Positions 2,285 through 32,082 of a stretch of 64,000 nt of DNA are shown here, piece after piece. Within the stretch, counting starts at the first letter, position 1, and each line of letters opens with the position of its first letter. The notes beneath the pieces were generated by a model. That model was not told the DNA's origin, ran no database searches, and worked only from the letters and a program-made list of their open reading frames with translations. Origin of the DNA: Mobula birostris (taxonomy: Eukaryota); contig NC_092385.1 of assembly GCF_030028105.1 (NCBI RefSeq), forward strand, positions 38,468,774 through 38,532,773, read 5' to 3'. The translations under genes were made by a program, and so were the position numbers.

Positions 2285-2532
2285 AGATGTGTATTTAATA
2301 GTTCAGTAGCATTTGAGTAATATTGTAAATATATTATTTGGGTAAACATTCTTGTTCATTTCAATAATTCATTACAGTTTATATGTTAAAATAAGTGAAT
2401 TGCATACATCATGACGCTACCATGTGTTACGTACATGCCTCGTTTAAAGTAAACACCAAGTTAGACTTGCATTCCCAGCTCCCTTGTTTTCCTTTGTATT
2501 AATTTAATGTTTTGGAGTTACCAAACATAAAA
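2285..2532 (+). repeat. 3' LTR of the Gypsy element
   Basis: Follows the PPT and aligns with 92-337; both termini are mutated. Confidence 0.85.
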
Positions 2533-3825
2533 CTACTTGGTCGAACTTTGTACAGTGACATATGCTTTTGCTAATGATTCTTTTTCCGGAGTCAGTAACT
2601 CAACCTTCTCCCCACCAAACAAAACCGGTAATGTATCAAGTTGTCTAACGCCTCCCATTTTCTGTATCAAACCCCAAACTTCCCCTACCTGCATCTCTTT
2701 CCCAATGCTATATCAGTACATCCTACAATATATTTTCATTGGCCTTCTTAGTATTTTTCTAACTATAGCTTGAGCTGTTCTACAGGAAAGATGAATAGGA
2801 GTAACACTGCCCAACTTTCCGAAAACCTTTATTCTGCTCCTACACAGCTCTTTTACATTTATCCATCCACCAGGGAACATCTCTCTTTTTATTATTGCCT
2901 CATTGATTCCTTAGCTATTGAGTCGGGTACAGTACGTGAAGTATTATTACTCAATTCAATATCCTACAAAACCAAATGATCAGGAAATCTACTTTCACAT
3001 GTTCATCAAATACATCCCAATTTGTCTTTTTAAACTTCCGTCTGGGGATATGAGAACATTTCCTCTGATACACATTTATTCCCATTGTACAGATAATGGG
3101 GAAATGATTACTCCCCACTTTTGTATTATTACACGCTTCACACTTACACACCCTAGATATATCCTCAGATACCAGTGTAAGATCCATAGCAGAAACAGCA
3201 TTGTTAAATAGATTTATCCTTGTACTTCCAGAAAGTCTTTCTCCACCATCCCATTCACATTTGTATGACTACATCCTCACGGGCATTAAAATCCCCACAC
3301 CAAATTACCTTATTTTTTTCCCATTTCCACCCATACTTTCCAATATACCAGGTATTATCCTTTCACAAATATTATAAAAATATCTGTACTTTATTATTCT
3401 TTCCCCAAATTTCAACCACGATTGACTCAAGCAACCCCAATTTCAAAAACTCTGTGTGCTTTCCCATTTTTGACAGAGGTAGCCACTCCTCCTCCATTGC
3501 CCATTTTCTAATTGGGTCTTATATGAACATAAACTTTTATCTTAAAACTTAGGTTAGATTTCAGCCAGGTTTCCTGCACATATATAACATCAGGTTTATT
3601 TGGTAAATCTTCAATAACTTTCTTAAACTCTTGACCATTAGCTAACAGGCTTCTAGCATTCCATTGTAAGATTAGAAAAACCATTAACATCTCTCCTTTG
3701 AAGTCTGAACATTATTTACTCCTCCTTGTAAGGCATTATTAATAACTTCTAGAGTTACGTTTTTCTGCAGCTTTTAATATAATTTTAATTTTTTCTGTCT
3801 TACTTTTAGTTTGTGCTGTACAATT

Positions 3826-4332
3826 TGCCATCATTGGAGAGAGCCCAGAGGAGGTTCAAGAGGGCGATTCCAGGAATGAAGTGGTTAACATATGAGGAGC
3901 ATTTGGCAGCTTTGGGTCTGAACTCCTTGGAACTTAGAACAATGCAGGGGGATCTCATTGAAACCTACTGAATGTTTTAAGGACTAGATAGGGTGGATAT
4001 GGAGAGGATGTTTCCTGTGGTGGTGGTATCCAGAATTAGAGGACACAGCCTCAGAATTGAGGGGTAACCGTTTAGAATAGAGATAAGGAGGATTTTTTTA
4101 GCCAGAGTGTATTAAATCTATGGAATGCTCTACCACAGACTGCAGTGGAGGCCAAGTCCATGGGTATATTTAAGGCAGAAGTTGATTGTTTCCTGATCAG
4201 TCAGGGCATCAGAGGATATGGCAAGAAGCCAGGTGTACATGGTTGCGTGGGATCCGAGGTCGGCCATGATGGAATGGCAGAGTAGACTTGATGGGCTGAA
4301 TGGCCTAATACTGCTCCTCCATCTTATGGTCT
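3826..4332 (+). mobile_element. CR1 LINE 3' fragment inserted in Nimb copy A
   Basis: LERAQRRF.R.IPGMK.L.YEE.L and RGDLIETY-type CR1 ORF2 C-terminus, followed by 3' UTR gggctgaatggcct and a cttatggtct tail. Confidence 0.85.
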
Positions 4333-5599
4333 AAAAGTGACAAACTTTATCAACAGCCAGAGAATCCTTTTTTATACATTCATTCACTTTATTTTAAACT
4401 GTCTGTATTCTGGATATTAATAGGTATCATCAGCACTGTCTTCTGTACTGATTGCAGAGCCTCTGCATATGTGCCCATTTCCAGCCAGACACTGCACTTC
4501 CCACAACCTTCTTACATACAAGATACCCTGCACAAGCAGAGCTATGTTCTCCTCCACATTTGCTACAACTTAGCCTAACACCTTCTGTTCAATTGCCATA
4601 ATCATGTTCTCCACCAGACCACTTTTTAACCCTTTCACACAGCTGCTACATGACAAATTTATGGTATTGAAAACGTCAGAGAGGAGGCAGCACATAGACT
4701 CAAAAAACCATACAAATCATAAAACCTAAATTAACCATATCTGGCAACTTTCTTTTCCCCATCAAATTTAAATCAATACCAATAAGCTACCTACTCTAAC
4801 TCCACCATGAAACCCTTTTGAACATTTAGCATCCACAAATTTTCCCAATTAAATTATTCTTAACTTGGCACATGGATGCATTTCAAGGCACTCTAGAGAT
4901 TCATCCCCAAAGCCGCTGCCATTCTTATTTTGGCGTTATTTTCCTTTTCGCCACAGCTTTTAACCCCAAAACTTTCTCAAATTGCTTACTATCTTTACAA
5001 AATACTAAGCATGCCTCATCACTTAAAGGTTTTGCCCCCACAATATCAACTAATGCTTTTTTCAAATCATTAGTCTAATTAGACCAACAACCGAAACAGG
5101 TCCACATTCGAAACTCAACAAAACCTTAAGTTCTTCCTTCTTTCTTTTACTTAAATCCTGTTTGCTGCCTTCCTCACTGGACAATAAGCCACTGCTATCC
5201 TCAATGAGCCATTTATTTTTCCATTTCCCAGAATCCTGCCATTCACTTTCCTCCATACAACTCCTATCACCCAATACCACCTCCTGTTCACTGCCTCAAT
5301 CCTTTCTGACTATTTATGCCATCTCTCCCACCACCCTCCCCTTCTTCCTGCCTGAGGGAATACTCCCAACAACAGGCTTAGTCCTTCCCAATCTGCTTCT
5401 TCTTCTTCTATTTCCGGCTGTTTAGATGCATCTAGGTGTATTACAGCCCTCCGCAGGATGTATAATTAATTATAGAACTTAAAGGAACGCAAATTCTGGA
5501 ATACAACCTAGTCTCACGTATAAACTGAATAATAGAATCTTCAATTAGATGTTGATTCTCTTGATGGCCAAACAAAGATTTAATAGAAAACCAAAATAA

Positions 5600-8500
5600 A
5601 TTTAAGCCAGATAGCATCTAGATCCACATGCTTCTTTCCATTTTGTATCGATTACAGCTCAGCAAAACATGCTAGACTGTCTCTGAACTACCACAGTCAC
5701 ATAATCCAGTAGGATGTTTTCCTATTATCTTTAAATAATAGTTTAGCCCACAATGCCCCAACCTAAGTCTTGTAAATTTCACCATATCTCTACGACTTAA
5801 AAGGTAACAGTCTGAGACCTTTTTAACTAGTGGGTGACTAGAAAAATAATGCCTGGCCCTTAATTCATTTTTCCAATCCTTCTGCCACTTCTTCTCTATA
5901 CCTTTTTTAATCCCACTTCTCAATTCTGCTCTGCCTAGGGGAACTCTAATTTCTACTTGCCTGCTCTGTAAGGAAGACTTTGCAATGCCATCCACAATTT
6001 CATTTCCCTCCACCCCAGCATGCCCAGGTATCCATGAAAATCTAACTGCACAACCCATCTTCCCTACTCTAAACAACACTAAGAGAATCTCAATACTGTA
6101 ACTATGTCAGGACAAGCTTTTGATTTACTCCCTCTAATTGGCTCTAAAGCAGCAGCAGAATCCGAACAGATGATAACCCTATGTGGTCAAGAGTCTTCTA
6201 TCCACCATAAGGCCCAGAGGATTGCTAATAATTCTGTTGCAAAGACAGAAACACCATCTGAAACCCGGTGACCAATCTTAACTCCAAGTTGAGACACATA
6301 CATCCCAAATCCTGCCCTACTGCTCTCTGGGTCCACTAAGCCATCAGTAAAAATCTTCAGATAAGATCCCCATTTATTATTTAAATATTCATTTGTGATC
6401 AACGCTAATGAAATTGCACTGCTTCCTTTAAGCTGAAAAAGGAGGAATAGGTCTACTTCTGGTTCTGGAAAGAGCCAAAAAGGGATGGGTGGCAAGCAAA
6501 TTTGGTCAACTATGTCTTCCTCAGTCAGTTTCAATTTCACAGCCCAGTTATTAACCAAATCTAGAAATGGGTATCTTTTAATTTTACTTTGGTGCTCCGA
6601 CTTCCCCTACAAATGACGCTTTGATGGACAGCTGTGATTGAATCCATTTAGTTTTACCCAATACTGCAGGCCCAACTAAATTTATCTTAAGTGCAGAGGC
6701 ACTTCTCCCATCTCCACACATAATGCCAGGACTGTTGTTGTTCTAAAAGCTCCACAACAGAGTCTAAGTGCTTTGGACTGCACAGTGTCTAGTTTTCCAA
6801 GCACTGCCACAGCAGCGGAACCATAAGCAATACAACCATAATCTATAACTGATCTAATCATAGCTAGATATATTAAGTACATAGTTTCCCGCCCTGCTCC
6901 CCAGTCGCATCCAGCAATACTTCTCATAACATTTAAAACTTTCTCACATTTTCCAATTGTTTTATCTATATGAACCCTCCAAGTAAGTCTTTCATCAAAC
7001 CAGACACCTAAAAACTTGAATACCTTGACTCTTTCTAGTGGAGAATCACATAGACACAATTCACAATCAGGAATCTTTCTTCTAAAGCCAAAAATCATGT
7101 ATTTGGACTTAGAAGCAGAAATCCTGAAACCCCTTTATTAGCCCAGTTTTCAACTGATCTTAAAGCCTTTGTACCTGCCTTAATATATACTTGATGTTTC
7201 TTCCTCTTTTCCAGATTGCAGCATCGTCTGCAAACAATGATTTGCCAAATCCAGTCCCTACCTGATCAAAGATATCATTTATCATGACATTCAAAAGAAC
7301 TGGACTAATGACACTTCCTTGAGGGGTACCATTACCTATTTTAACTGACTTGGAGCTTGTTCCACCTATTCTTATTTGAATTGTCCTTTCCTTAAGGAAA
7401 CCTTTGATCCAATTAAACATTCTACCTCTAATTCCCGCAGCATAGAGTTTAATTAATAAGCCATCCTTCCATAGTGAGTCATATGCTCTTTCAATATCTA
7501 GAAATACACTTACCGTTACTTCTCTATTTTGAAATGCTTTTTTAATATCATGATCTAAAAGGGCAACAGATTCCATTGTTGATCTTCCAGTTCTAAAAGC
7601 ATTTTGATAGGCAGCAAAATGTCCCTTATTTTCCAAAAGATAAACAAGTCTGTTGGTGACCATTCGTTCCATAGTTTTACAAAGCACTGACATTAAAGCT
7701 ATAGGTCGCTACGAACTAGGACTAGACGTGCCCTTACCTGGCTTTAAAACTGGAACTACCACCGCATGTTTCCATTCTACTGGTAATTTTCCTTCTTTCC
7801 ACACTGAATTAAACAATGCTAGAAATTCTATTAATACAGAATCATCTAAATGCTTAAGCAATTCATAACACAGTCCTTCCCTACCAGGAGAAGTGTTTGA
7901 ACCTGATTGGACAGCTTCCTGCAATTCCTGAAGGGAGAAAAACAAATTTATGGAGCTATTATCATCCAAACTCCCGTCTAATTTCCAACTTTCCTTTAAC
8001 AATTTCCTTTTCAGATCACCTAACTCTCCAGAACTGTGTAACGCTTGGAACACCTCTACAAACATATCAGCCTTTTCCTTATTGGTTACAGCTTCAATAT
8101 CTCCTTCCAGCAAAGCTGGGATAGATGGTTTCCTATATATCCCTGACGTTCTGTGAATGATCATCCATAGCTGCTTTATAGGTGTCTCAGGGCCCAGAGT
8201 TCCACAAAATCTTCTCCAACTATCCCTCTTTGCATTTTTAATTACTCTCCTTGCTACTGCTCTTTCCTTTTTATACTCCATAACATTATCTAACACTGGG
8301 TACTTTCTTAATTTCCTGTAAGCTCTATTTCTGTTTCTTACTGCTATATCACAACTTTTATTCCACCACGGAACTAATGCTCGAGCCTTAAGTACATTCC
8401 ATAGTGGAATAGTCAACTGAGCAACTTTATGAATTACAGAACAGAGGGATTCATTCCAATTGTCTATGGAGTCCTCGCTATTAATCTCCTCTATTATATC

Positions 8501-9235
8501 CACAGCTTTCTCCTGATACTCATCCCAATGGCCCAGAGAAAAATTCTACCTAGCAGACCTCTCCTCAACTTCTACTATCAAATTTCTGCCAAATCTACAT
8601 AATGTAGGATACTGATCACTTCCTAGTGTGTATCTATCCATAACATCCCATTCCCCAACCTTAGCGAAGTTTGAGGAGGTGATAGATATGTCTAAGTGAC
8701 TACAAGTATTCTTTACAATATTAAATCTTGTAGGCCTTCCATCATTTAGCAGTACCATGTTGTATTTATCTAGAAACTCCTCTATTACCGCTCCATTACT
8801 ATCTTTACTTTCACTACCCCATATAGGATTATGGGCATTGAAATCTCCAACTCAGATTACTGGGGATTTTACCTTATTCATAATTTCATCCAAATCTGAT
8901 AATGTCATATTGCCTGGATTATAAAAGTTAATCAAAGTTATTTGACCACGAGAGCTCCAAACCTCCACAGCCACAATTTCAAGGTTAGAGTTAATATCAG
9001 GTCTTCTAAACTGGAGTCCTGTTTTTATGAAAGTTGCACACCCTCCACCAGATTTACCTGTTCTGTCAGCTCTCAAACGATCATATCCAGGGATCACAAA
9101 ATCTAAATGAGGCTTTAACCATGTCTCCTGTCTACTGATCAAATCAGGCTTGTCTTTAAAAGTTCCAACAAATCTTTTTAATTCTTGACCATTTGCAGAT
9201 AAACTTCTTGCATTCCATTGTAATATTAAAAGCAT
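5600..9235 (-). pseudogene. ORF2 of Nimb copy B (APE, RT, RNase H), fragmented
   Basis: ORF track pieces 8852-9268, 8546-8758, 7709-8503, 7160-7693, 6682-7098, 6187-6558 and 5672-6079 occur in canonical domain order. Confidence 0.9.
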
Positions 9236-9242
9236 TGTAATA

Positions 9243-10450
9243 CTAATTATTGGCCTCTTCATCCACATAAAGCTCCTCTGTACTCTCTGATCCCGACAAC
9301 TGGGAAGTATTCAGTGATTGTTTGTCTATCATATACTCATGTAATTTTTCTGGCAAAATCTGTTTTATATCAAGGAATCTCTCTGCAGCTCCAACAACTA
9401 CTTTTATCATATCCGACCTCTTTGCTATAGTTTTAGCCCCGACCAGTGCATCAGCAACAGACGCCAAAAAAGACTTTAGTCATCAACAACATGCCTGAAG
9501 GGACCATAGTTGGAGAACTCGGAATGAACTGACTCCCCATCATTGCAATCTTTTCTTTACTTATCCTTTGCTCTCTATCAACTTTCTTTACTGCTTCAGC
9601 ACACAATATTTTTTGTTAGATACTAACATCCTGAATCTGCTTTGCCTTACTAAAATACTCATCCTCTGAATGCCGCTATGTGGTCCCCTCCGCAGTTACT
9701 GCATTTAGGTACCGCTGCCTTACATGCTTTAATATCATAATCCTCTCCACACTTCATACATCTTCTTTTATCTTGACATGAACCAGCAACATGTCCAAAC
9801 CTCTGGCAATTATAACAGTGTAAGGGAGGCCTAATGTATTCTCTAACTTGATAAGACATGTACCCAAGGTAGACTCTAGTTGGAAGAACATCACCTGCAA
9901 AAACCAGAAGAACAGGGGAATCCCAATTACCACCTTCTCTCGATTTTAATTGTTTGGCTTCAATCACTCGACCACCTTTAATATTGTCCAAATTTTCCTT
10001 TTCAGTCATGCCAGACCAAATACCATACACTACCCCCTTAACTCCCTTCCTTTCTTTCAGAGTAATACACTCCACTTTCACAACCAATTTTCCCACCATT
10101 TTAGCACTGTTATATTGGTCAATATCCTTGCAACAAATTTTCAGCAATCCATTAGACAAAATCTTGGCCTAGAATCCTTTACCTATTTGGTCCTCTAATG
10201 CTGCTGCCACTTTCAAAGGATTAAGGGCTCTAAATCCTCCTTCTCCTTCCTTCTGACCTTTAATTTTATACGGAACTATAAATTCCTCCAATTCACCCAT
10301 TCTCCTCAATTTGTTGTCCCCCATTACTTCAGGTCTTTCACTTGATGCACCCCTTTTTTGGCTACCCTTACTTCTGGAGTATTCCACAGTCTCCCGCTCT
10401 CCCCTTTCAATCTCAACCCCCCCCCTCTTTTGCAGCCATAGGCTGCAAAC
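9243..10450 (-). pseudogene. ORF1 (gag-like zinc-knuckle protein) of Nimb copy B, fragmented
   Basis: Pieces 10169-10516, 9659-10159 and 9243-9467, with knuckles CYNCQRFGH, CMKCGED and CSNCGGDH. Confidence 0.85.
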
Positions 10451-10889
10451 TAACCCTTTCCAAACTACCAGGCTCCTCCACGCCAAAGTCCCCACCCACT
10501 CGATCAACAGCCCCAACTCGGGACCAAGGGAGCCAGCCAGCAGCCAACCAATTCGTCCTTCCCAATCCTACAGCTGCTCTTGAATTAAGCAGCTAATAAT
10601 CATTGCTTCTGTTCCAATGGCCATTCTGATTCTTCTTCTTCTTCTATTTCCGGCAGTTTAGATGCACCTAGGTGTATTACTGCCCTCCGCAGGATGTATA
10701 ATTAATTATAATTCCGCTTGCAAATGCTGTATGTGCACATTAAATAGCAATGCCGCAGATTGTTTTCCTTCTCAAATTTTGTCATGTGGTTTCCAAATAA
10801 TTGCATTGCCTCCAATTACATTAAATTCATTTGAATCATTTGTAAAAGTAAAAGCTTTTTGCTTGAGAATATTCATAATTGCATGCTTA

Positions 10890-11217
10890 ACATTTAAAAT
10901 TGTTGTTCCTTTTCTTGAATCAAAACCTGTAGTTGTTTATTGAGATCTTGAAATTCTTCCTCAGTTGATTCCATGTTTTCATTTTATAATCCGAATGTAG
11001 ATAATTCACTTTGCAACAAGTTCCTTTTTCCTTTTGTAACTTTGGAATAAGTTCCTCCGTTTTTAATCTGTTTTCCATGTCACTGAATTTTGACAACAAG
11101 CATCTTTTTCAGAAACCGTCTCCTTTAAATGCAGTACTGTTTCATCCAATCTCTTTCTAACTCACAGTTGTTCTTATTGAGTACTTCTTTTTGTTGATGG
11201 AGTTCTGTACATTTACC
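10890..11217 (-). pseudogene. Decayed coiled-coil coding fragment, probably host-derived, inside copy C
   Basis: With three frameshifts it reads GKCTELHQQKEVLNKNNCELE/KRLDETVLHLKETVSEKD/LLSKFSDMENRLKTEELIPKLQKEK/NLLQSELSTFGL*NENMESTEEEFQDLNKQLQVLIQEKEQQF. This is an E/K/Q/L-rich heptad-like pattern unlike any LINE ORF2 region. Confidence 0.55.
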
Positions 11218-11484
11218 CTGGGTTTCAACCATGTTTCTTGTAACATAAAATCTGAGGTTTTTCCTTAAATTCTGGTACATATTTCGTAAATTCTTGATCA
11301 TTTGCAATGACTTCTTTCATTCCCTTGTAATATATAAATATGTAGATATATACAGCCATGAATTTCCCTCCTCGCTTACCTGTGAACTGTTTGATCCTCC
11401 ATTCAGCGTATCTTTGACTACTTCCCACCTAAGCCCTGAAATACCAAGATATTTTTCTGCAGACTTGACTATAATTTTAATTTT

Positions 11485-12603
11485 TTAGGTTCTTTTGTCT
11501 GTTTGCGCTGAACAGTTAATTGCATCTACCATAAACAGTACGAAATCCTTCTTACTCATAATTAACGTGTCCTTATTTATCATATTACAACCTTCACAGT
11601 TCACCAGTTTATTATTCCCTGTACTTGTTTGCTTGATAGCCTTTTGTCCAGCAAATGCTTTCACTGCCTCTACGTAACTGATCCCTTGAGTTACTTTTAC
11701 ATATTGTATGTCAGCTTTTTTCTTGCTAATAATGCACCCTTGATAAGCTGCACTGTGTTCCTCACCACAATTGCAGCATTTCAGCCTAGCTCCCGCCTCA
11801 CATTTCCCATATTCATGCTCTCCGGCGCACCTTCCACATCTTTGTTTCCCTCTGTAGACCGCAGCAATATGCCCAAATTTCTGACATTTAAAGCATCTTA
11901 AAGGCGGTGGTATATATATTCTGACCTCATAACACATATACCCTAAATAAACTTTAGTCGGCAATCTCTCTTCATCAAAGTTGATCATAACCGATAAACG
12001 ATCACACTTTTTCCCGTTTCTTGTAACTTTCAAACGTTTGGCCTCAATAATTTTTGCTCCTTTTACGTTCTGTTTAATCTCATCCATTGTAACTTTTGTT
12101 GGTATACCTGAGATAACTCCTCTAGTCCACTTTCTATTGTTGAGTATTGAGCATTGTACTTTTTTGCCATCTATTTTATTTAATCTTATCACTTTGTCTT
12201 GTTGAGCACTGTCCCGACAAATCATTAATAGCGATCCATTTTGTAAAATCTTTGCTTTTTTGATTTCACCTATAAGTTTGTTGGTTATCTTCGTCAAATG
12301 AATCGGGTTCCATTCACCAAAAGACGCTCCGTCTTCGCTCAGTGTTATAATTGCTTTAATCTCATCTTCTTTCCATTGTTTTGCTATCCTATTTTGTTTG
12401 TCCCCCGACTCCTTAGAGTTTGACATCTCATACCTCGGTTTCCTTTCCTCACTCTCTTCATTCCATTCCTCTATCTCAAACTCACTTTCACTATCCGCCA
12501 ACCTGTTCATCCCACAGGATATTTTCTTCATCAACTCAGCAATTGCAGCCTCCGTGCTCTTTTCCAACTCCACCAGCCAACTCAAATTTCCAACTCCAGC
12601 CAA
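11485..12603 (-). CDS. ORF1 gag-like nucleic-acid-binding protein of copy C (372 open codons; the stop is probably premature)
   Basis: WNPIHLTK, ILQNGSLLMIC, RGVISGIP, LPTKVYLGYMCYEVRIYIPPPLRCFKCQKFGH, CGRCAGEH, CCNCGEEH. Homology continues past the TAA as KIKIIVKSAEKYLGI. The start codon is uncertain (TTG in the track). Confidence 0.75.
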   Translation of the reverse strand: MAGVGNLSWLVELEKSTEAAIAELMKKISCGMNRLADSESEFEIEEWNEESEERKPRYEMSNSKESGDKQNRIAKQWKEDEIKAIITLSEDGASFGEWNPIHLTKITNKLIGEIKKAKILQNGSLLMICRDSAQQDKVIRLNKIDGKKVQCSILNNRKWTRGVISGIPTKVTMDEIKQNVKGAKIIEAKRLKVTRNGKKCDRLSVMINFDEERLPTKVYLGYMCYEVRIYIPPPLRCFKCQKFGHIAAVYRGKQRCGRCAGEHEYGKCEAGARLKCCNCGEEHSAAYQGCIISKKKADIQYVKVTQGISYVEAVKAFAGQKAIKQTSTGNNKLVNCEGCNMINKDTLIMSKKDFVLFMVDAINCSAQTDKRT

Positions 12604-12804
12604 CCCCTGCCATTCTGATTAGCCCGAGCTTTTTTTAATTGGCTACTGTTAATTAGCTTATTAACTAACTAATAATCAAGTATTAACTAACAATTTGCAA
12701 ACCTCTATAGGGTCCTGTTTAGTGAAACTCATCAACAAGTCCCCTCACTCCTCTCACTCCAAGTCCTGGTTTGTCAATTTACTTTTTTCACAATTGACTT
12801 CCAG

Positions 12805-13020
12805 TTCATAGAAATACATGGGATAGGAACAAGCCTCTCACACCAACATGTCTCCTCTGACCATGATGTCGATTTACCTAATCCTATCTGTCCGCAATGG
12901 TCCATAGCCCTCTATTCTTTACTTCTTCAAGTGTCTGTCTAAATAGCCTCTTAACTACTGCTATCAAATTTGCTCCTACCACCTCCACAGGCAATAGATT
13001 CCAGGCTCCTACCACTCTCT
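12805..13020 (-). mobile_element. Old CR1 3' end fragment
   Basis: catagaaataca... tail and gcaatagattccaggctcctaccactct, typical of CR1 3' ends. Confidence 0.55.
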
Positions 13021-13449
13021 TACAAGATCTTGTCTTGCACACTTTCTACTCCCCCCCTACCACCTCACCTAAAACCATATTTAAGGAAACAGGTGCCTAG
13101 CAAAATGAGAAGCTGAGAGTGAGAGTGGGAAGATATTCATTCAACTCTTTTCAATTAATTAATCAGATTTATAATAGAAAGTTTCTAGTCAAGAAGATTC
13201 TAGTCTCCTTGTCAGCTATTAAGAGGCACAAACTACAAAAATATTTAAATGTTCTCAATTTCTACTGAAGCACAATCGGTTTGTAAATGATAAGGTTCTG
13301 ATTAGACAGTGAAATTATTAACAAAAATATGTTTGCTGTGTATCCAAAGTGAAATAGTTCCTGGATGGGAGACACTGCGGGCGGAGGTCGCCTGGAAGGG
13401 TGGGGATCTTCAGCACTTGAGCTCGTGGTTGTAATGTTGCCCAGGGCCA

Positions 13450-15720
13450 CCAACCTGAAATGAATTTTGTGAGGACAGATTAACTTCTGGAGCTGTGACT
13501 GGAGAGGAAATGGCAGGTAGTGAGTGGGAGATGGAGTATGGCGGCAGAAGTGGGAAGGAGGATGATAATTGACTGGTAGTTAAAGGATGTAGGAGAAAGC
13601 AGGAACATTGTGTAGGGAGCAAACTTAGTGATTGTGAGGAATGGTGTGACACTGATAATTCAAGGTATCGATGAAGATTGACTGCTCCTAGTAGTTCTCC
13701 TAATCCGATTTGGTTAACTTCTGATCTTACAAACATGCTGGGGGATATAGTGCTTGTCTGCTTTGAGATGGGAAGTTGCTGGTACTGTATACGAAGGGAT
13801 AGAGCCTTGACTTTGAAATCTGTAGGTGGTATGAATGTACCTATTTCACTGTTTATGGAAGGACAGTGGATGATTGTAGTGATATGGGGAGGTCCTTTAG
13901 ATGTTTCAGTGGACCAGATAAAAGAGAATTTGAAAGGGGGAAAAGTGATAGAAGCAAAAAGGTTAAAGTTTCAGCATAGAGTACGTAAAGATAATCTTTT
14001 GGTTAAGGTTAAACTTGACAGTAGTTTATTGTCAAATAGAGTGTCTTTCGGTTTTATGGGTTATGGGGTTCAGGTGTTGGTGCAGCTTCTTAGATGTTTT
14101 AATTGTCAGAAATTTGGACATGTAACTGCTGTGTGCCATGAGAAGAAATGTTGCAGTAAGTGTAGTGGTGAACATGACTACAGAGTCTGTAATAATGGTG
14201 TTAAGCTGAAATGTTGTAATAGTCATGGTGAACATAATGTTGCATATTGAGGGTCTGCAGCTTGTAATAAAGTGAAACTGAAATCTGGTATGTCGTATGC
14301 TGAATCCCTAAAGAAGTTCAAGGAAGTTGATAAGGTTATGCCTTGTCATACCCCTGTCCAATAAGAAATTGTTTCTCCAGCTCTCTCATTTATTACTAAT
14401 GAAACTTCAATAGAAGCTAAGGTAAGATTTCTCGCCTTTATGGCTGATGTAGTCAACTGTACTTCTCAAGCTGAGAGTCGAACAGAGAAAACAAAAATTA
14501 TTTTTTGAAGGCTGCAGTTAAGTATCTTGGTATTGCAGGAATGTCATTAGAGATAGTAAGGTAAGTGTTACGGGGTTGAACCTCAGTTGATTAATGGTGC
14601 TTACTATTTTACAGTGGAATTCCAGGATTTTGATTGCTAATGGTCAGAAATTTAAAGTTTGTGGAGGATATGCCTTCTCTTCCAGGTGCTATCTGTATTC
14701 AACAGACTTGGTTAAAACCTCAGTTTGACTTTGCTTTACAGGGATATGATGTATTATGGAGAGATCATGATTTGGGTGCTGGGGATGGTGTTGCTACTTT
14801 TATCAACAATTGGAGAAGGTATAGGGTGGGGCAGATAGGCGATTCTTATGAGTTTGTGTGTGGTAGAAATATGGGATAAGTGTAAGAAATTAGTGGTAAT
14901 TAATTTTTATAATCCCTATGATGAATTAACCTTTGTAGTGTTGGAGACTGTTGGGGGGGTCATAGGACTCAGAGACTAGATTGGTGTGGAGATTTTGATG
15001 CACACGGAACACTGTGGGGTGCAGTACAACGGATGCTAATAGTTAAAGTGGTGGAGGATTTCTTGGATAGTCATTGTTTGATGTGTCTTAATGGTGGTAG
15101 AGGAACTAGATTTGACATTTGGGAAAAAACAGTGTCTGCTACTGATCTCACATTGGTATCTGATTCTATTGCAGATATCCCAGAGTGGGATATTTACAAG
15201 AAGAGCTTGTTAGGGAGTGATCATTTCTTGATCAAGTGCATGGTAGGCATGGAACTATATAGGACTGAGAGCTCTTCTGTTCCTAGATGGAACTCTAGGC
15301 ATACAGAATGGGATAAATTTGAGAAATTATGTGAAATTATATAGTCTTTTAAAAATAATAATTTTGAACTTTTTAGTAATGTCCTATATCAAATAGCTGT
15401 GTATTCAATTCCTAAAGTAGCTGGTTATGGCAGGAGAAAGGTTGTGCCTTAGCGAACAGATGTCTGCGTTCAGGCAGTGAAAGATAGAAACAAGGCCTTT
15501 AATAAATGTAAAAAGTTTTATTTCGTGGAATATTTGTTTCAGTATAAACGAGTACAAGCGTCAAATACTGCAGCAGTATTGGTAGGGAGATTCCAGAAGG
15601 CAAAGTGTGGGGTATGATTCGGAAGATGAGAGGTGTGAGGCAGAGCAGAGTCCTTCCAGTCTTGTGTTCTGGGGAGAAAATGAGCTGTATTGGAAGTGAA
15701 AACTAATGCTGTTAGTTACA
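13450..15720 (+). mobile_element. I/Nimb-clade LINE copy D (ORF1 plus APE, 3'-truncated, decayed)
   Basis: ORF 13678-14250 DQIKENLKGGKVIEAKRL..LRCFNCQKFGHVTAVC..CSKCSGEH; ORF2 start at 14594 MVLTILQWNSRILIANGQKF; ICIQQTWLKP; DLTLVS..LGSDHF; no RT or tail follows. Confidence 0.85.
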
Positions 15721-18254
15721 TTTTTTTCAAATAATAAACCAACACTCTTCGTAAATACTGGGAGAAGAGAAATGATTAGCACAGACTTCTTGCCATTGAT
15801 AGATTCCCTTTTCCTGATTATTGTCTCAGGCAAAACATTTTACTTGTACTATGGAAATCTTTTATTGAACTTGTATTCTATCCAGTACAGAGATCAGTTA
15901 CATCCAGATCCAGTTACCTCCAGACTCAAAACAACTGCAATCCTCTCCTGTACAGCCACCGTTCCACTACTGTCTGTAATCTTTAGTTAACTATTAACAA
16001 TGCACATCCCATGGCCATATGCATTCACTTATTGACTCTATGGAAGATTTCCGTTAACACCTGGTCTCCCTACATCCATGACACCTCCATTTGCTCTCCT
16101 TACTGCATAGTTTCACTCTATCTACTATGTTGTCCCTAACTTCTTCCAGTTCTAAAACTTAGCGAACTCACCATTCTTCTGACTCATACCATCTCCTCTT
16201 GCTATTGTTGGTGGTTGTACCTTCAGGCCTGGATTTATCTTCCTGTATTTCCATGCTCCTTGACAGATTTCTTTAAAACCTACTCATTTGAAAGTACAAG
16301 TCATTACTAGGATATGAATTCATGAATTATAGACACTTCCTACATAAGAACAAACTCCCATAATAATTCATTTAAAATCTGATATATGTTAATTCCTACA
16401 AACAGTAGAACCAATTTCTCTCTCTGTGTCCACCTTTAGTAATTGTTTATTCTAATCAGTCTTATGTGCTTTTGATGCCATTCATTACAATACTGTGGAG
16501 GCAGAGTTACCATATTGAGTGATTTTTGTGAATTTTCTGACTTATGGGCAAAGCTGATTTATATGTAGATGTCTGTAAAAATGGAACATTTTGTTACCCA
16601 GGGAAGGCCTGTGTTGAACATTCCTCGCAATACCTCCTTTGACTTTACACTCATTTGATTTTAGTTATACACTTGTGAATCTTCTTTTCAATGTAAGTAC
16701 AATAATGGTAGTAATAATCCTAACCTTGGGATATGAAAGCATTTGTCATGCATATTGTAAGCTATGTGTTGAATTTAGAGTCCCATTCACTTGCCTTATC
16801 AAGTATCCATGTGGGATAAATTTTGAACTGAATGTGAAATACATTTTATTTCTCTCACTTTTAATTCATGTAGAAAGAAATTTAAACTTTTTGACTAAAT
16901 TTTATCAAGGATGAATCTTCTCTTCAATGGGAAAAGTTTGGGCCACATGCTCGCAATGTACAGCCAATATTAGAAGCATTCTTTCTTCAGGTTATTCATA
17001 ATCTGATGGTAAGCAATTATCCTTGATTCCAAATACAGCATCACCAAAAATAGCTGCAAACTTATTTTCATTCTGTTGTTACTGGAATGAATTCAGTTCA
17101 AACCATTCATGGTTACATAGTTAAATTTTTCCCCATAAACTTTATCTGCTTTATGCAGGAGAAGGTTCTGTATATGTTTGGATATACATATACGCAAAGT
17201 TGTCTCCCAAAAAATTAGAAATGACAATGCCTGGAAAGTGAGGATAGGAATATGCTTACACTCCAAATATTTTAATTAAGGTCATTTTCTGCTTCTGTGC
17301 CTTATGAGGTCCTATATACTTCATAGACATGTTCTGACCCCAAATTGGATTGAAATTCCATGCATTTTCACTTTAAAGATTGCTGCCTTTGGGAAATCTT
17401 CATGAAATGTTACCAGATTCAGACTGAATGCTGAATCCAGTCTTAAGTTGAGAGACTAATTTCATTACAAGTGTGAATCATTTAGTTTAATGCTAAATCC
17501 TTTTATTTATTCATAACAAGTTGTCATTACCAAGGCCCACAATTATTATCCATCCAGAATTGTTCCTGAATGAAGTTTCTTGTCGAACTATTTTAGATGG
17601 CTGTTAAAATCCATTCACTTTCATCCTGAACGCACCCCAAGTAGAAGTTATATGTATGTAGACTGAGAATGCAATAATATTGCACACATTCTTTTTTAAT
17701 CAAGCAAATGCAAAACCACAAATACAAGACAAATACTGTATATGTCAAATTCTGATAAATCATAAACATCCATATAAAGTAGTTTATTTGCTGATTATGT
17801 GAGCAGAGATGTGAAGAAATGATTTCTTTCCCTTTTAAATTAATATGTACTTTCAATAAAATTGGAACGTTCAATTTTAAAACATTTCAAAAAAGGTACA
17901 TCAATTAGGTTTACTGCAAAATATTTTTCATGAGACAGAAATAGAAATGGGAATTTGGCCCATCGAGTCTGCTTAAGGAGATCATGGCTGATTTGCTGCT
18001 TTTCTGACACTTCCTTATACCTTTCTCATAATATCAAAATCTGATCAATTTCTTATCTGCATATAATTCAGTGACTGGATATTTACTTATTATTTCGGTA
18101 TGAAAATGTCTACCCTTTCTTCTAAAACTCTGATTCATATTTTAAACTGTCCATTTGGAGCAACTTCCTCTCAGCCCTTAACGATTCTTTCCCAGTAGTG
18201 CTTTCTAAAATGCTGGAAAATAATCAGTAATTCAAACTAGCCGCAAGGATATTT

Positions 18255-18809: not shown

Positions 18810-20990
18810 TATTACAAATAAGAAATTTTCAAAGGGAAGAAGGACACTACCATGGGTGACAAGTGAAGTCAGAGCCAAAGTGAAAGCAAAAGAGAGGGCA
18901 TACAAGGAAGCCAGAGCTAGTGGGTAGAGGATTGGGAAACTTTTAAAAACTTGCAGAAGGAAGCTAAGAAGGTCATTGGGAAGGAAAAGATGAATTATGA
19001 AAGGAAGCTGGTGACTAATATCAAAGAAGATACTGAAAGCTTTTTTAAGTATATAAAGGGTAAAAGAGAATCGAGGTTAGATATAGGGCCAATACAAAAT
19101 GACGCTGGAGATATTGTATTGAGAGATGCAGAGGTGAAGAGGAACTGAATGCGTATTTTGCATCAGTCTTCACAGTGGAAGGCATATGCATTCAAGATTG
19201 TCAGAGAAGTCAAGTATGTGCAGTGAAAATTACGACAAAAAGGTGTTCAGGAAGCTTAATGGTCTGAGGGTGGATAAATCTCCTGGACCTGATGGAATGC
19301 ACCCTCAGGTTCTGAAGGAAGTAGCTGGAGAGATTGCAGAGGCATTAGCAATGATCTTTCAAGAATCAATAGTACCAGATGACTGGAAAATTGTGAATGT
19401 TAGTCCACTATTTAAGAAGGGTGGGAGGCAGCAGAAAGGAAACCATAGACCTGTAAGCCTGACATCAGTGGTTGGGAAGTTGTTGGAATTGATCGTTAGG
19501 ATGAGATTACTGAGTACCTGGAGACACAAAGCCGGCATGGTTTCCTGAAAGGAAAATCCTGCCTGACAAACCTACTGCAATTCTTTGAGGAAATTACAAG
19601 CATGGTAGACAAAGGAGATGCAGTAGACGTGCTGCACTTGGATTTTCAGAAGGCCTTTGACAAGTTGCCACATGTGAGGCTGCTTAGCAAGATAAGAGCC
19701 CATGGAATTATAGGAAGTTACTAGCATGGGTGGAGCATTGGCTGGCCGACAGAAAACAGAGTGTGGGAATAAAGGGATCCTATTCTGTTTGGCTGCCAGT
19801 TATCAGTGGAGTTTCTGCCTGACAAACCTAATGCAATTCTTTGAGAAAATTACAAGCATGGTAGACAAAGGAGATGCAGCAGACATGGTGTACTTGGATT
19901 TTCAGAAGGCCTTTGACAAGTGGGACTGATGCTTTTTATGATGTATGTCAATGATTTGGACTATGGTATTAATGGATTTGTGACTAAATTTGCCGATGAT
20001 ACAAAGATAGGTGGCGGAGTGGGTAGTGTTGAGGAAACAGAGAGCCTGCAGAGAGACTTAGATAGTTTAGGGGAATGGACAAAGAAGTGGCAAATGAAAT
20101 ACAATGTTGGAAAGTGTATGGTCATGCACTTTGGTGGAAGAAATAAATGGGCAGACTATTATTTAGATGGGGAGAGAATTCAAAATGCAGAGATGAAAAG
20201 GGACTTGGGAGTCCTTGTGCAAGATACCCTAAAAGTTAACCTCCAGGTTGAATCGGTTGTAAAGAAGGTGAATGCAATGTTGGCATTTATTTCTAGAGGT
20301 ATAGAATATAAGAGAAGGGATGTGATGTTGAGGCTCTATAAGGCACTTGTGAGATGACACTTGGAGTATTGCATGCAGTTTTGGGCTCCTTGTTTTAGGA
20401 AGGAGATACTGACATTGGAAAGGGTTCAGAGAAGATTCACGAGAATGATTCCAGGAATGAAAGGGTTACCATATGAGGAACGTCTGGCAGCTCTTGGGCT
20501 GTATTCCCTGGAGTTCAGGAGAATGAGGAGGGATCTCATAGAAATATTCTGAATGTTAAAAGACCTGAACAGATTAGATATGGCAAGCAACACACACAAA
20601 AAATGCTGGTGGAATGCAGCAGGCCAGGTAGCATCTACAGGAAGAGGTGAAGTTATTTCCCATGCAGGGGATTCTAGGATAAGAGGGCACGGCTTCAGGA
20701 TTGAAGGACGTCCATTTAGAACTGAGATGTGGAGAAATTACTTTAGTCAGAGGGTGGTAAATCTGTGGAATCTGTTGCCACGAGCAGCCATGGAGGCCAA
20801 GTCACTGGGTGTATTTAAGGTAGAGATAGATAGGTTCTTGATTGGCCAGGCCATCAAAGGGTATGGGGTGAAGGCAGGGGAGTGGGGATGACTGAAAGAA
20901 TTGGATCAGCCTATGATTGAATGGCAGAGCAGCCTCAATGGGCCGAATGGCCTACTTCTGTTCCTATATCTTATAGTCTTATGGTCTTAC
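18810..20990 (+). mobile_element. CR1 LINE, 5'-truncated (ORF2 RT), decayed
   Basis: KSPGPDGMHPQVLKE, WKIVNVSPLFKKG, HRPVSLTSVVGK, YLDFQKAFDK, KFADDTKIGG, LERVQRRFTRMIPG; tail cttatagtcttatggtctta. Confidence 0.95.
20586..20650 (-). mobile_element. Penelope-like terminal fragment inserted in CR1
   Basis: gcaacacacacaaaaaatgctggtggaatgcagcaggccagg matches the repeat at 21190 and 57045. Confidence 0.6.
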
Positions 20991-30520: not shown

Positions 30521-30966
30521 GTATTATTATTTATTAGTATTTTTTTACCTAGCCCGGGGATTGTATGTGCTTGTGTTGCGGGTGTTATGTCGCTCGTTTG
30601 ACAACGTCCTTTGAAGCGGCGGCAATTGCTGTACTGGGGGGCGGGGGTACAAGAGACCCGAGGTTGCTTTCCCTATTGAGTCAGACAGTTAAACGAATGT
30701 CTCCTGTTCCTATTTCAGAAATGATTGGTCTTCAGGGTGGATAGAAACAAAAAAAACCCCCACAAAAACCATTCGTTTAAGGAAGACTGTCTTCCCCCAC
30801 ACCCTTTCCCGTTTCCATCCTCTCCCCTCCCCACCGCAACGGTGGTTACACAATGAGGATTAAAAGGAACTTTGTGGTTTGTGGGGTCTGCCCTTTCCGA
30901 TGGAAATGGAGACACTGAGCTGTTGACGGCGAGGATCGAGGCTGCCCCATTCTGATGCTCGCCTCG

Positions 30967-32082
30967 ATGGCGAACGCCAGTGAGCTAGAAGAGACGAATA
31001 GCTCTCTTCAGAATTACGCCATCACCGCCTCGGCCGTCAAGCTGGCTTCCCTGGGTTTGATCATCTGCATCAGCCTGACCGGCAACCTGCTGCTCTCCTT
31101 CCTGCTCTTCAAAGAGCCAAGCTTGCACCGGGCTCCCTACTACTTTCTGCTGGACCTCTGCCTGGCCGACATCGTGCGCTCGCTCCTCTGCTTCCCGTTC
31201 GTCATGATCTCCATCAGCAGCGGCTCGGCTTGGACCTACAGCCTGCTCAGCTGCAAGATCATCGCCTTCGCCGCCGTCCTCTTCTGTTTCCACGCCGCCT
31301 TCATGATGTTCTGCATCAGCATCACCCGTTACATGGCCATCGCCCACCACCGCTTCTATTCCAAACGAATGACGGTGTGGACTTGTGTGGCGGTCATCTG
31401 CATGGTGTGGACCCTGTCGGTCGCCATGGCCTTCCCGCCAGTTTTCGACGTGGGCACCTACAAGTTCATCCGTGAGGAGGAGCAGTGCATCTTCGAGCAC
31501 CGCTACGTGAAGGCCAACGACACCCTGGGCTTCATGCTGATGCTGGCGGTTATCATCGCCGCCACACACATGGTCTATGTCAAGCTCATCTTTTTCGTAT
31601 ACGACCACCGCAAGATGAAACCCGCTCAGTTGATCCCGGCCATCAGCCAAAATTGGACGTTTCACGGCCCGGGCGCCACAGGCCAGGCGGCCGCCAACTG
31701 GATCGCTGGCTTCGGCAGAGGACCCACGCCCCCTACCCTAGTGGGCATCCGGCAGACCACGCACAACCAGAACAAGAGACTGCTGGTCTTAGATGAGTTC
31801 AAAATGGAAAAGAGAATAGGCAGGATGTTCTACATCATAACCGTACTCTTCCTGCTGCTGTGGTCGCCATATATTGTCGCATGTTATCTGCGGGTCTTTG
31901 TCAAAGCCAGTACCATCCCCCAGGTCTACCTGACCGCCGCAGTGTGGATGACATTTGCCCAGGCGGGGGTCAATCCGATTTTGTGCTTTATCTTCAACAA
32001 AGAGCTGAGGATTTGCTTCAGAACCCACTTCCCTTGTTTTCAAAGCACACAGACGCCCAGGGAAGCTTACTGCGTTATTTAA
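30967..32082 (+). CDS. GPR27: SREB-family class A orphan GPCR, most likely GPR27/SREB1 (371 aa from MANASE; an in-frame ATG at 30955 would add 4 aa)
   Basis: Intact 7TM ORF with SREB signatures HRAPYYFLLDLC, TRYMAIAHHRFY and QNWTFHGPGATGQAAANW.AGFGRGPTPP. GPR27-type residues as recalled: MANASE start, KM.PA.L.PA, LVGIR, YLRV, PQ.YLTA.VW.TFAQAG, CF.FN.ELR.CFR..FPC.QS. The family is secure; paralog assignment against GPR173 is less so. Confidence 0.8.
   Translation: MANASELEETNSSLQNYAITASAVKLASLGLIICISLTGNLLLSFLLFKEPSLHRAPYYFLLDLCLADIVRSLLCFPFVMISISSGSAWTYSLLSCKIIAFAAVLFCFHAAFMMFCISITRYMAIAHHRFYSKRMTVWTCVAVICMVWTLSVAMAFPPVFDVGTYKFIREEEQCIFEHRYVKANDTLGFMLMLAVIIAATHMVYVKLIFFVYDHRKMKPAQLIPAISQNWTFHGPGATGQAAANWIAGFGRGPTPPTLVGIRQTTHNQNKRLLVLDEFKMEKRIGRMFYIITVLFLLLWSPYIVACYLRVFVKASTIPQVYLTAAVWMTFAQAGVNPILCFIFNKELRICFRTHFPCFQSTQTPREAYCVI

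Follow-up and report, generated by a model that had tools for sequence, protein, structure and literature searches.

A multi-copy, non-autonomous LINE of rays that joins an ORF1, a host GCC2 fragment and a 3′ tail probably drawn from a second LINE lineage

Element C is a chimeric unit of 1,977 bp located at positions 10632–12608 (minus strand) of the 64 kb window, i.e., the whole stretch of DNA that was analysed. It has a tripartite structure, with LINE sequence including ORF1 on its 5′ side, a host GCC2 gene piece of myliobatiform origin in the middle and a LINE tail at its 3′ end; it is a genuine insertion flanked by TSDs, and related copies are present many times over in ray sequencing data. 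With a probability of roughly 0.6, C belongs to a multi-copy, non-autonomous ray LINE that combines the ORF1 of one lineage, the GCC2 piece and the tail of a second lineage whose RT it likely uses, and that probably supplies an ORF1 protein of its own.

The best reading of C is that of an ORF1-only LINE of the I/Nimb group, with Nimb rather than I as a putative label taken over from the earlier note. RNase H in ORF2 is an I-group trait, and the relatives of C carry APE, RT and RNase H in their ORF2. Locus L001 is full-length and has all three domains (the tested part being RT and RNase H) and a (GAA)n tail; L002 also possesses APE, RT and RNase H. The neighbouring element B yields matches to RVT_1 (E 2e-27), Exo_endo_phos_2 (E 2e-17) and, weakly, RNase_H (E 0.001). 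To our knowledge, L1 has neither CCHC knuckles nor RNase H; the knuckles in ORF1 and the RNase H in the ORF2 of relatives rule out C as a HAL1 proper, which would be L1-derived.

The unit lies between two copies of a 12-bp TSD, gccattctgatt, one at its 3′ end (10620–10631) and one at its 5′ end (12609–12620), both defined by sequence and by an empty-site joint. This 12-mer has two occurrences in the window, counted on both strands. A contig from run X10 (organism D) joins 10619 to 12609 and skips 1,989 nt, which equals 1,977 + 12 nt; the joint is represented by one contig with a depth of 11.8 and a short side of 52 nt. Since organism D has an empty site with one 12-bp copy, C and the duplication constitute a single real insertion, and the earlier note, which had described a 1,977-bp unit between perfect 12-bp TSDs, was right on this point. 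The flank in organism D differs from the window by 4–6% and the site is empty there; the insertion took place after organism D had split off. A flank contig of run X8 (organism B, not element B), different at 7 of 393 positions, opens with 30 nt of element C, which suggests that the same insertion is present in organism B. The flank in run X1 has 0 differences in 438 nt, and this run may be the window's own source rather than an independent one. The 5′ leader (12532–12608, minus strand) resembles, as judged by eye, the 5′ motif of full-length L001, and the C copy is therefore probably 5′-complete.

The gag-like ORF1 of C (11356–12531, minus strand) is homologous to LINE ORF1s and contains three CCHC knuckles. 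Its first in-frame ATG is at 12531, the start codon being uncertain. The earlier description of a 372-codon open ORF1 holds in part: the frame comprises 377 codons from stop to stop, with 0 frameshifts across 373 aligned codons, but the ORF is not intact. A premature TAA at 11485–11487 ends it ~42 codons short of the homologous end, and at 11855 Tyr stands in place of the final Cys of knuckle 1. Both lesions are private to the C copy. At the stop site (position 11487), other contigs encode Glu, with 12,061 of 14,214 of the depth in X1, 2,866 of 2,885 in X8 and all of it in X10 and X17; at the knuckle site they encode Cys at a level of at least 99%. Because of these two private lesions, C is a dead copy of a multi-copy ray element. 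All three knuckle spacings, CX2CX4HX4C, CX2CX3HX4C and CX2CX3HX6C, are present in C; the same spacings are described for Limi, a Nimb element of the locust (PMC3391268). Neither an intact ORF1 of the C family nor a close chondrichthyan ORF1 was found in the protein database among the best 120 of 200 matches, which reached at most 63%.

The unit has no RT. All that it contains of ORF2 is the decayed start (11221–11359, minus strand), recognised by alignment with L001: ~46 codons of the APE endonuclease that end in QETWLKP, are identical to the L001 APE at 24 of 44 positions and contain two frameshifts. The earlier note had seen about 40 decayed APE codons stopping at the same motif, and its junction at about 11218 lies within 2 nt of the APE/GCC2 junction found here, 11221/11220.

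The approximately 500 bp of non-LINE sequence that follows, formerly a putative host coiled-coil fragment, can now be named. It is a captured fragment of GCC2 (golgin GCC185), amino acids 612–805, located at 10711–11220 on the minus strand in the sense orientation of the element and identified by protein search, alignment and a tree. The GCC2 proteins of Hemitrygon and Mobula were the sole two matches of the protein search among 154 candidates (E 3e-8), and tblastn gave E 2e-21; a Pfam search of all six frames of the cargo gave nothing useful. A frameshift-aware alignment counts six frameshifts and one stop in it, along with two deletions, one of 13 codons and one of 10. In a comparison with 17 orthologues, the cargo is identical to GCC2 of the stingray Hemitrygon at 129/163 positions (79%), to that of two Mobula at 124–126/162 and to that of Pristis at 106/163, while identity to the remaining batoids and sharks is 50–57%. 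In the GCC2 tree, the cargo joins Myliobatiformes with a bootstrap of 100, and its position near the dasyatid–mobulid split has weak support (69). These comparisons indicate capture in the myliobatiform ray lineage, after the split from sawfishes. In mammals, the captured region lies within one large exon. An APE–GCC2 fusion protein is ruled out, as the junction is out of frame in C and reads the same in loose ends of X10 and X17.

The 3′ tail (10632–10710, minus strand) is of the B-type LINE and ends in (GAA)n. As reported earlier, this 79-bp tail is identical at 76 of 79 positions to the tail of B, located at 5396–5474; a self-search of the window gives this match E 1.5e-31. Neighbour B (5396–10555, minus strand) is a full-length, decayed, autonomous-type LINE with an ORF1, an APE–RT–RNase H ORF2 and a 13-bp TSD; it has accumulated 5 frameshifts and 11 stops. 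The ORF1s of C and B are only 36% identical over 326 aa (34–36% for B versus the clade), which rules out C as a deletion product of B and agrees with the earlier view of a clearly divergent ORF1. ORF1 identity between C and L001 is 60%. A quick ORF1 tree of 46 rows, comprising about half of the matches of at least 370 aa and with long branches for A, B and D, places C in a 17-row clade with L001 (SH-aLRT 97) and B outside it. The ORF2 of B is 39–45% identical to that of L001 along its whole length, and that of L002 is 48–49% identical to L001; B is a coherent outsider to the C/L001 lineage in both ORFs. Scans of contigs yielded 48 metagenome and 2 genome loci, four of them full-length with tails (L001, and L002–L004, which form one family); blastn of C against these 50 loci found matches to the ORF1 or APE parts only.

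Alignments of the tails give 62/65 for C and B, 46/83 for C and L001 and 44/76 for C and L002 (55–58% to L001 and L002). The comparison of ORF1 and tail proposed in the earlier note is thus discordant, ORF1 going with L001 and the tail with B. Since ORF1 is 36% identical to that of B but the tail is 96% identical, and the L001 tail is only ~55% alike, the tail of C appears foreign to its ORF1 lineage. Judged by the tail, the family likely borrows a B-type RT in trans, with B as a likely representative of the helper lineage and the tail as the likely, predicted RT-recognition signal. A 6-bp stem formed by 10652–10657 with 10679–10684 is paired in all four tails; where 10655 faces 10681, C has A-U, B has U-A, and L001 and L002 have G-C. 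The covariation over the four tails falls short of significance, an equally high score being reached by 54 of 500 shuffles, and the folding energy of the tail is no better than that of shuffles (z −0.11 to 0.12); the stem is suggestive of a predicted recognition structure. Because one stem pair has changed on both of its sides between the tails of C and B, a sister of B, and not B itself, may be the helper.

Public sequencing runs contain further copies. Part of C occurs in 20 of the 24 listed runs, from organisms A–G and skin metagenomes, each with at most 0.39 of the words. Four of the 24 (X1, X8, X10 and X17), none of them RNA, were compared at 80% likeness, individual pieces and loose ends being read from the best 32 of 5,084 and the best 24 of 538, ranked by support. 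GCC2-bearing contigs occur in all four, and in the three deep runs their depth greatly exceeds that of a single copy. The unique flank has a depth of 44.7 in X1, 5 in X8 and ~6 in X10, and the summed depth of the cargo bins, which is not a copy number, is 3,953–7,948, 291–1,141 and 64–1,921 in these runs, one to two orders above a single copy. A single 316-nt contig of X1 that runs from the cargo into the APE stub has a depth of 378 versus 44.7 for the unique flank, so it is not explained by one real GCC2 gene. The small fourth run (17.6 Mb) has no cover on the unique flank, yet contains cargo contigs. A rough estimate of copy number is tens to low hundreds.

Among the best 32 of 5,084 pieces, two bridge the tail/GCC2 junction with at least 31 letters per side, record 1 from X1 and record 26 from X8, the latter continuing into 285 nt of a different flank. 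Three pieces of the same set (X1, X10 and X17) cross the APE/GCC2 junction with 16–23 letters on the APE side, short of the 31 letters per side that define bridging. Other copies retain 30 nt of GCC2 lost from the C copy and have different deletions, and these differing GCC2 deletions point to possible subfamilies. The earlier note had named dispersed copies that share both junctions, each with a different TSD, as what would establish a family. Multiple GCC2-bearing copies were indeed found in several organisms, at least one of them with a different flank, but no piece among the best 32 of 5,084 spans both junctions. Its wider reading of a mobilised chimeric family is supported: the TSD and empty site, the high cargo depth and the copy with a different flank together characterise a non-autonomous family.

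The observation that ORF1 has no frameshift while the APE stub and cargo carry several is also confirmed (0 versus 2 + 6). None falls within the 1,119 nt of ORF1, against 8 in the 641 nt that stub and cargo make up (P 3e-4). The decay rate of B predicts 0.66 frameshifts in these 641 nt and 1.15 in ORF1, at which rate a zero in ORF1 alone is unremarkable (P0 0.32). As the insertion is young and the cargo branch measures 0.196 aa, most of the decay of the cargo took place in the propagating lineage, where ORF1 remained in frame. Substitutions were taken from the best 40 of 286 rows by support; 26 differences are listed in 11376–12542, of which one upstream of the first ATG was dropped. Of the remainder, 13/25 are synonymous versus 20–29% expected (P 0.0003–0.011), and only 8/17 are synonymous in rows at or above 0.8 in all three deep runs (P 0.01–0.08). 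Since autonomous donors and the chimeric family are mixed in the ORF1 contigs, it may be the donors that account for the synonymous excess. The best 12 of 30 indel rows include one in ORF1 (3 nt) and eight in the stub and cargo (1–2 nt). A variant with ORF1 deleted by a 498-nt skip has multiplied in X1 (depth 458 versus 45 for the unique flank). Taken together, purifying selection on ORF1 in the family has moderate support and seems a good deal more probable than its absence, and the family probably supplies its own RNA-binding ORF1 protein.

Double template switching is the likely origin of such a unit. A B-type RT would prime on its own RNA tail and copy ~79 nt, jump onto GCC2 RNA for ~580 nt and then jump onto RNA of a C-lineage LINE at APE codon 46, running to the 5′ end. 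The product, having a leader with a promoter, an ORF1 and a tail that binds RT, could then undergo transcription and return to the genome by target-primed reverse transcription. Later exchange of the tail would be an alternative source of the tail match, and exchange of tails is documented for SINEs (PMC5786205).

A single parent could also be imagined, although we consider this improbable. An autonomous element with the ORF1 and APE of C and a B-type 3′ end would have existed beforehand, its RT jumping to GCC2 and back to the same RNA; the family would then depend on its own parent, as HAL1 does, and borrow no foreign RT. An autonomous donor of C-type ORF1 does exist, since contigs of X10 and X17 leave the unit at 11221 with the C-type APE stub and go on into APE-like sequence; the two-sided stem change between the tails of C and B and the replacement of UTRs known in L1 (PMC5753468) are in keeping with this account as well. 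However, where contigs run on from this tail into ORF2, the end of that ORF2 resembles B (21/24 by eye; agreement 0.96 among 11 contigs of X1), both ORFs of B are uniformly remote from the C/L001 lineage, and L001 has a different tail. The evidence does not fit internal deletion within the same parent, an outcome that an unseen recombinant parent would change. Marginally less probable still is that ORF1 is carried as a passenger of a long SINE-like RNA that moves by its 5′ promoter and tail alone, the clean ORF1 being a signal of autonomous donors or the result of recombination with donors that refreshed the 5′ part. The ORF1-deleted variant, at ~10x the unique flank in X1, and the stop and knuckle loss in the C copy would agree with this, as would the ORF1 bins, which are several times deeper than the cargo bins, so that donors contribute. 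Yet in the APE stub, which adjoins ORF1 and shares its donor, 134 nt contain 2 frameshifts, against 0 in 1,119 nt of ORF1 (P 0.011), and the stop and Cys loss are private to the C copy.

[quoted passage not shown] GCC2 is a Golgi tether, and we know of no piRNA role for it. Drosophila telomeric LINEs offer a precedent, and part of the cargo appears duplicated in some copies of organism D (joint 11073→10703, depth 65), but the cargo is ~21% diverged in protein and undergoing deletion, and PMC13534243, which also describes the precedent, reports almost no host-gene piRNAs at 79–82% identity. A test of the host gene for escape was likewise negative. GCC2 protein p-distances in 8 segments and 13 species pairs, a test of low power, showed no myliobatiform-specific acceleration; the captured segment has 18 differences between Hemitrygon and Mobula versus 4–16 in the seven other segments, and it is also the fastest in non-myliobatiform batoid pairs. 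The GCC2 piece is most likely neutral filler: it does not share the reading frame and is being eroded, and no acceleration after capture is seen in the host region. Least probable of all, and already largely refuted, is that the chimera arose only once, or by rearrangement after insertion, and is confined to this locus. Tripartite chimeras with TSDs have been described as single cases (PMC2104539), but the high cargo depth in three deep runs, the cargo contigs in the fourth, the different flank and the structural variants stand against it.

The reading of C as a member of a chimeric, non-autonomous family can be set beside several known systems. Kojima (2018, PMC5786205) lists non-autonomous LINEs with ORF1 from no clades other than L1, Jockey and CR1. 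HAL1, HeT-A and Ag-Sponge resemble C in having retained ORF1 and lost ORF2 function and in being multi-copy, with a TSD and a LINE tail (PMC5786205); they likewise rely on an autonomous partner (PMC5786205; PMC5753468). These elements are described as internal-deletion derivatives from L1, Jockey and CR1 (PMC5786205), whereas C is assigned to the I/Nimb group, has 5′ and 3′ lineages that are 36% alike in ORF1, and has a host coding fragment between them. Gene capture, represented in the C family by GCC2 aa 612–805, has a parallel in TART/nxf2 and in Drosophila telomeric LINEs with pieces of piwi or aub, among which ORF1-only families are common (PMC13534243). Those elements are fly telomeric Jockey LINEs with 140–235 bp fragments, mostly of piRNA genes, and with evidence of host targeting (PMC13534243); C, in contrast, is a dispersed vertebrate insertion with a TSD and ~510–580 bp of a golgin gene, without a sign of host-gene escape.

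The proposed birth of the family also has parallels. Magnaporthe WEIRD/Mg-SINE/MGL chimeras combine three RNA-derived parts in one TSD through double template switching (PMC2104539), and mammalian L1 chimeras show double template switching within one TSD (bioRxiv 10.1101/2025.02.02.635956). The abstracts of both sources describe these as individual insertions, whereas the chimera of C became an amplifying family. The RT of Nimb has been proposed to mobilise foreign RNAs and SINEs with Nimb tails (PMC11481361); unlike such SINEs, C is protein-coding, and no tRNA-type head was seen in it by eye. The ingredients are each known elsewhere (HAL1, HeT-A, TART gene capture), and neither this family nor this combination was found described in the literature searched, subscription journals, Repbase Reports and Dfam aside, where a consensus may exist.

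The family adds to vertebrates an ORF1-only LINE of the I/Nimb group with a traceable birth. It provides a natural test of whether the 3′ tail alone chooses the RT that mobilises an RNA, and of whether ORF1p and ORF2p have to come from the same element. The GCC2 piece serves as a built-in neutral clock and as a control for selection on ORF1, and the insertions give presence/absence markers for ray phylogeny; scattered GCC2-like sequence can, at the same time, mislead annotation and read mapping. The broadest version of the preferred reading, namely that of a two-parent vertebrate parasite that spread across the ray radiation with its own ORF1p selected to work with a foreign ORF2 whose native ORF1 is just 36% alike, is tentative and falls a little short of even odds. 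If true, it would mean that LINEs of the I group can work with a non-cognate pair of ORF1p and ORF2p, and that a chimeric pseudogene formed a single time can give rise to a protein-coding family that persists for long.

Four I/Nimb-like elements of separate lineages (A, B, D and C, the 1,977-bp chimeric retroelement) are packed into 13 kb at window positions 2530-15760, with ORF1s that are mutually 27-38% alike. The insertions of B (a decayed, full-length autonomous-type LINE) and C are spaced by 51 bp, the target site duplication (TSD) of B ending at 10568 and that of C starting at 10620, and both sit just upstream of the ORF1 of A. Such a grouping might reflect a hotspot for insertion, or the elements may simply form a cluster of repeats. 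The 3′ part of A is cut off by an LTR-flanked element at 97-2530, the LTRs of which (97-335 and 2290-2530) are 83-89% identical to each other; by eye, the decayed internal region between them looks Gypsy-like. The ORF1 of A also contains an inserted repeat fragment of another family (3832-4330), which occurs a second time in the window at 20413-20878. The window further contains an intact single-exon rhodopsin-family GPCR gene on the forward strand (30919-32082; 7tm_1, E 1.5e-37), which presumably resembles the SREB group (GPR173/GPR85).

In public sequencing run X1, a joint at 11846->12345 marks a variant without 498 nt of ORF1, at a depth of 458, about 10× that of the unique flank. A second ORF1 deletion has its joint at 11916->12198 (depth 64). 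The deleted variants are possibly ORF1-less sub-parasites. In run X10, a joint at 11073->10703 (depth 65) suggests a 371-nt duplication of the captured GCC2 cargo in some organism D copies; it resembles the amplified aub fragments of Zaprionus elements.

Among the listed named protein matches to the ORF1 of C, bony fishes are in the majority. In goldfish, a protein that bears the name dUTPase isoform X2 in its annotation (P0086) is mostly Nimb-like ORF1; it is probably a gene-model artefact and possibly another ORF1-host chimera. The nearest full-length relative of C's ORF1 (P0004; L001:339-5570) comes from a metagenome contig and is 60-61% identical. Since such identity spans such a distance in a fast-evolving ORF, horizontal transfer may lie behind the likeness of C's ORF1 to its distant relatives.
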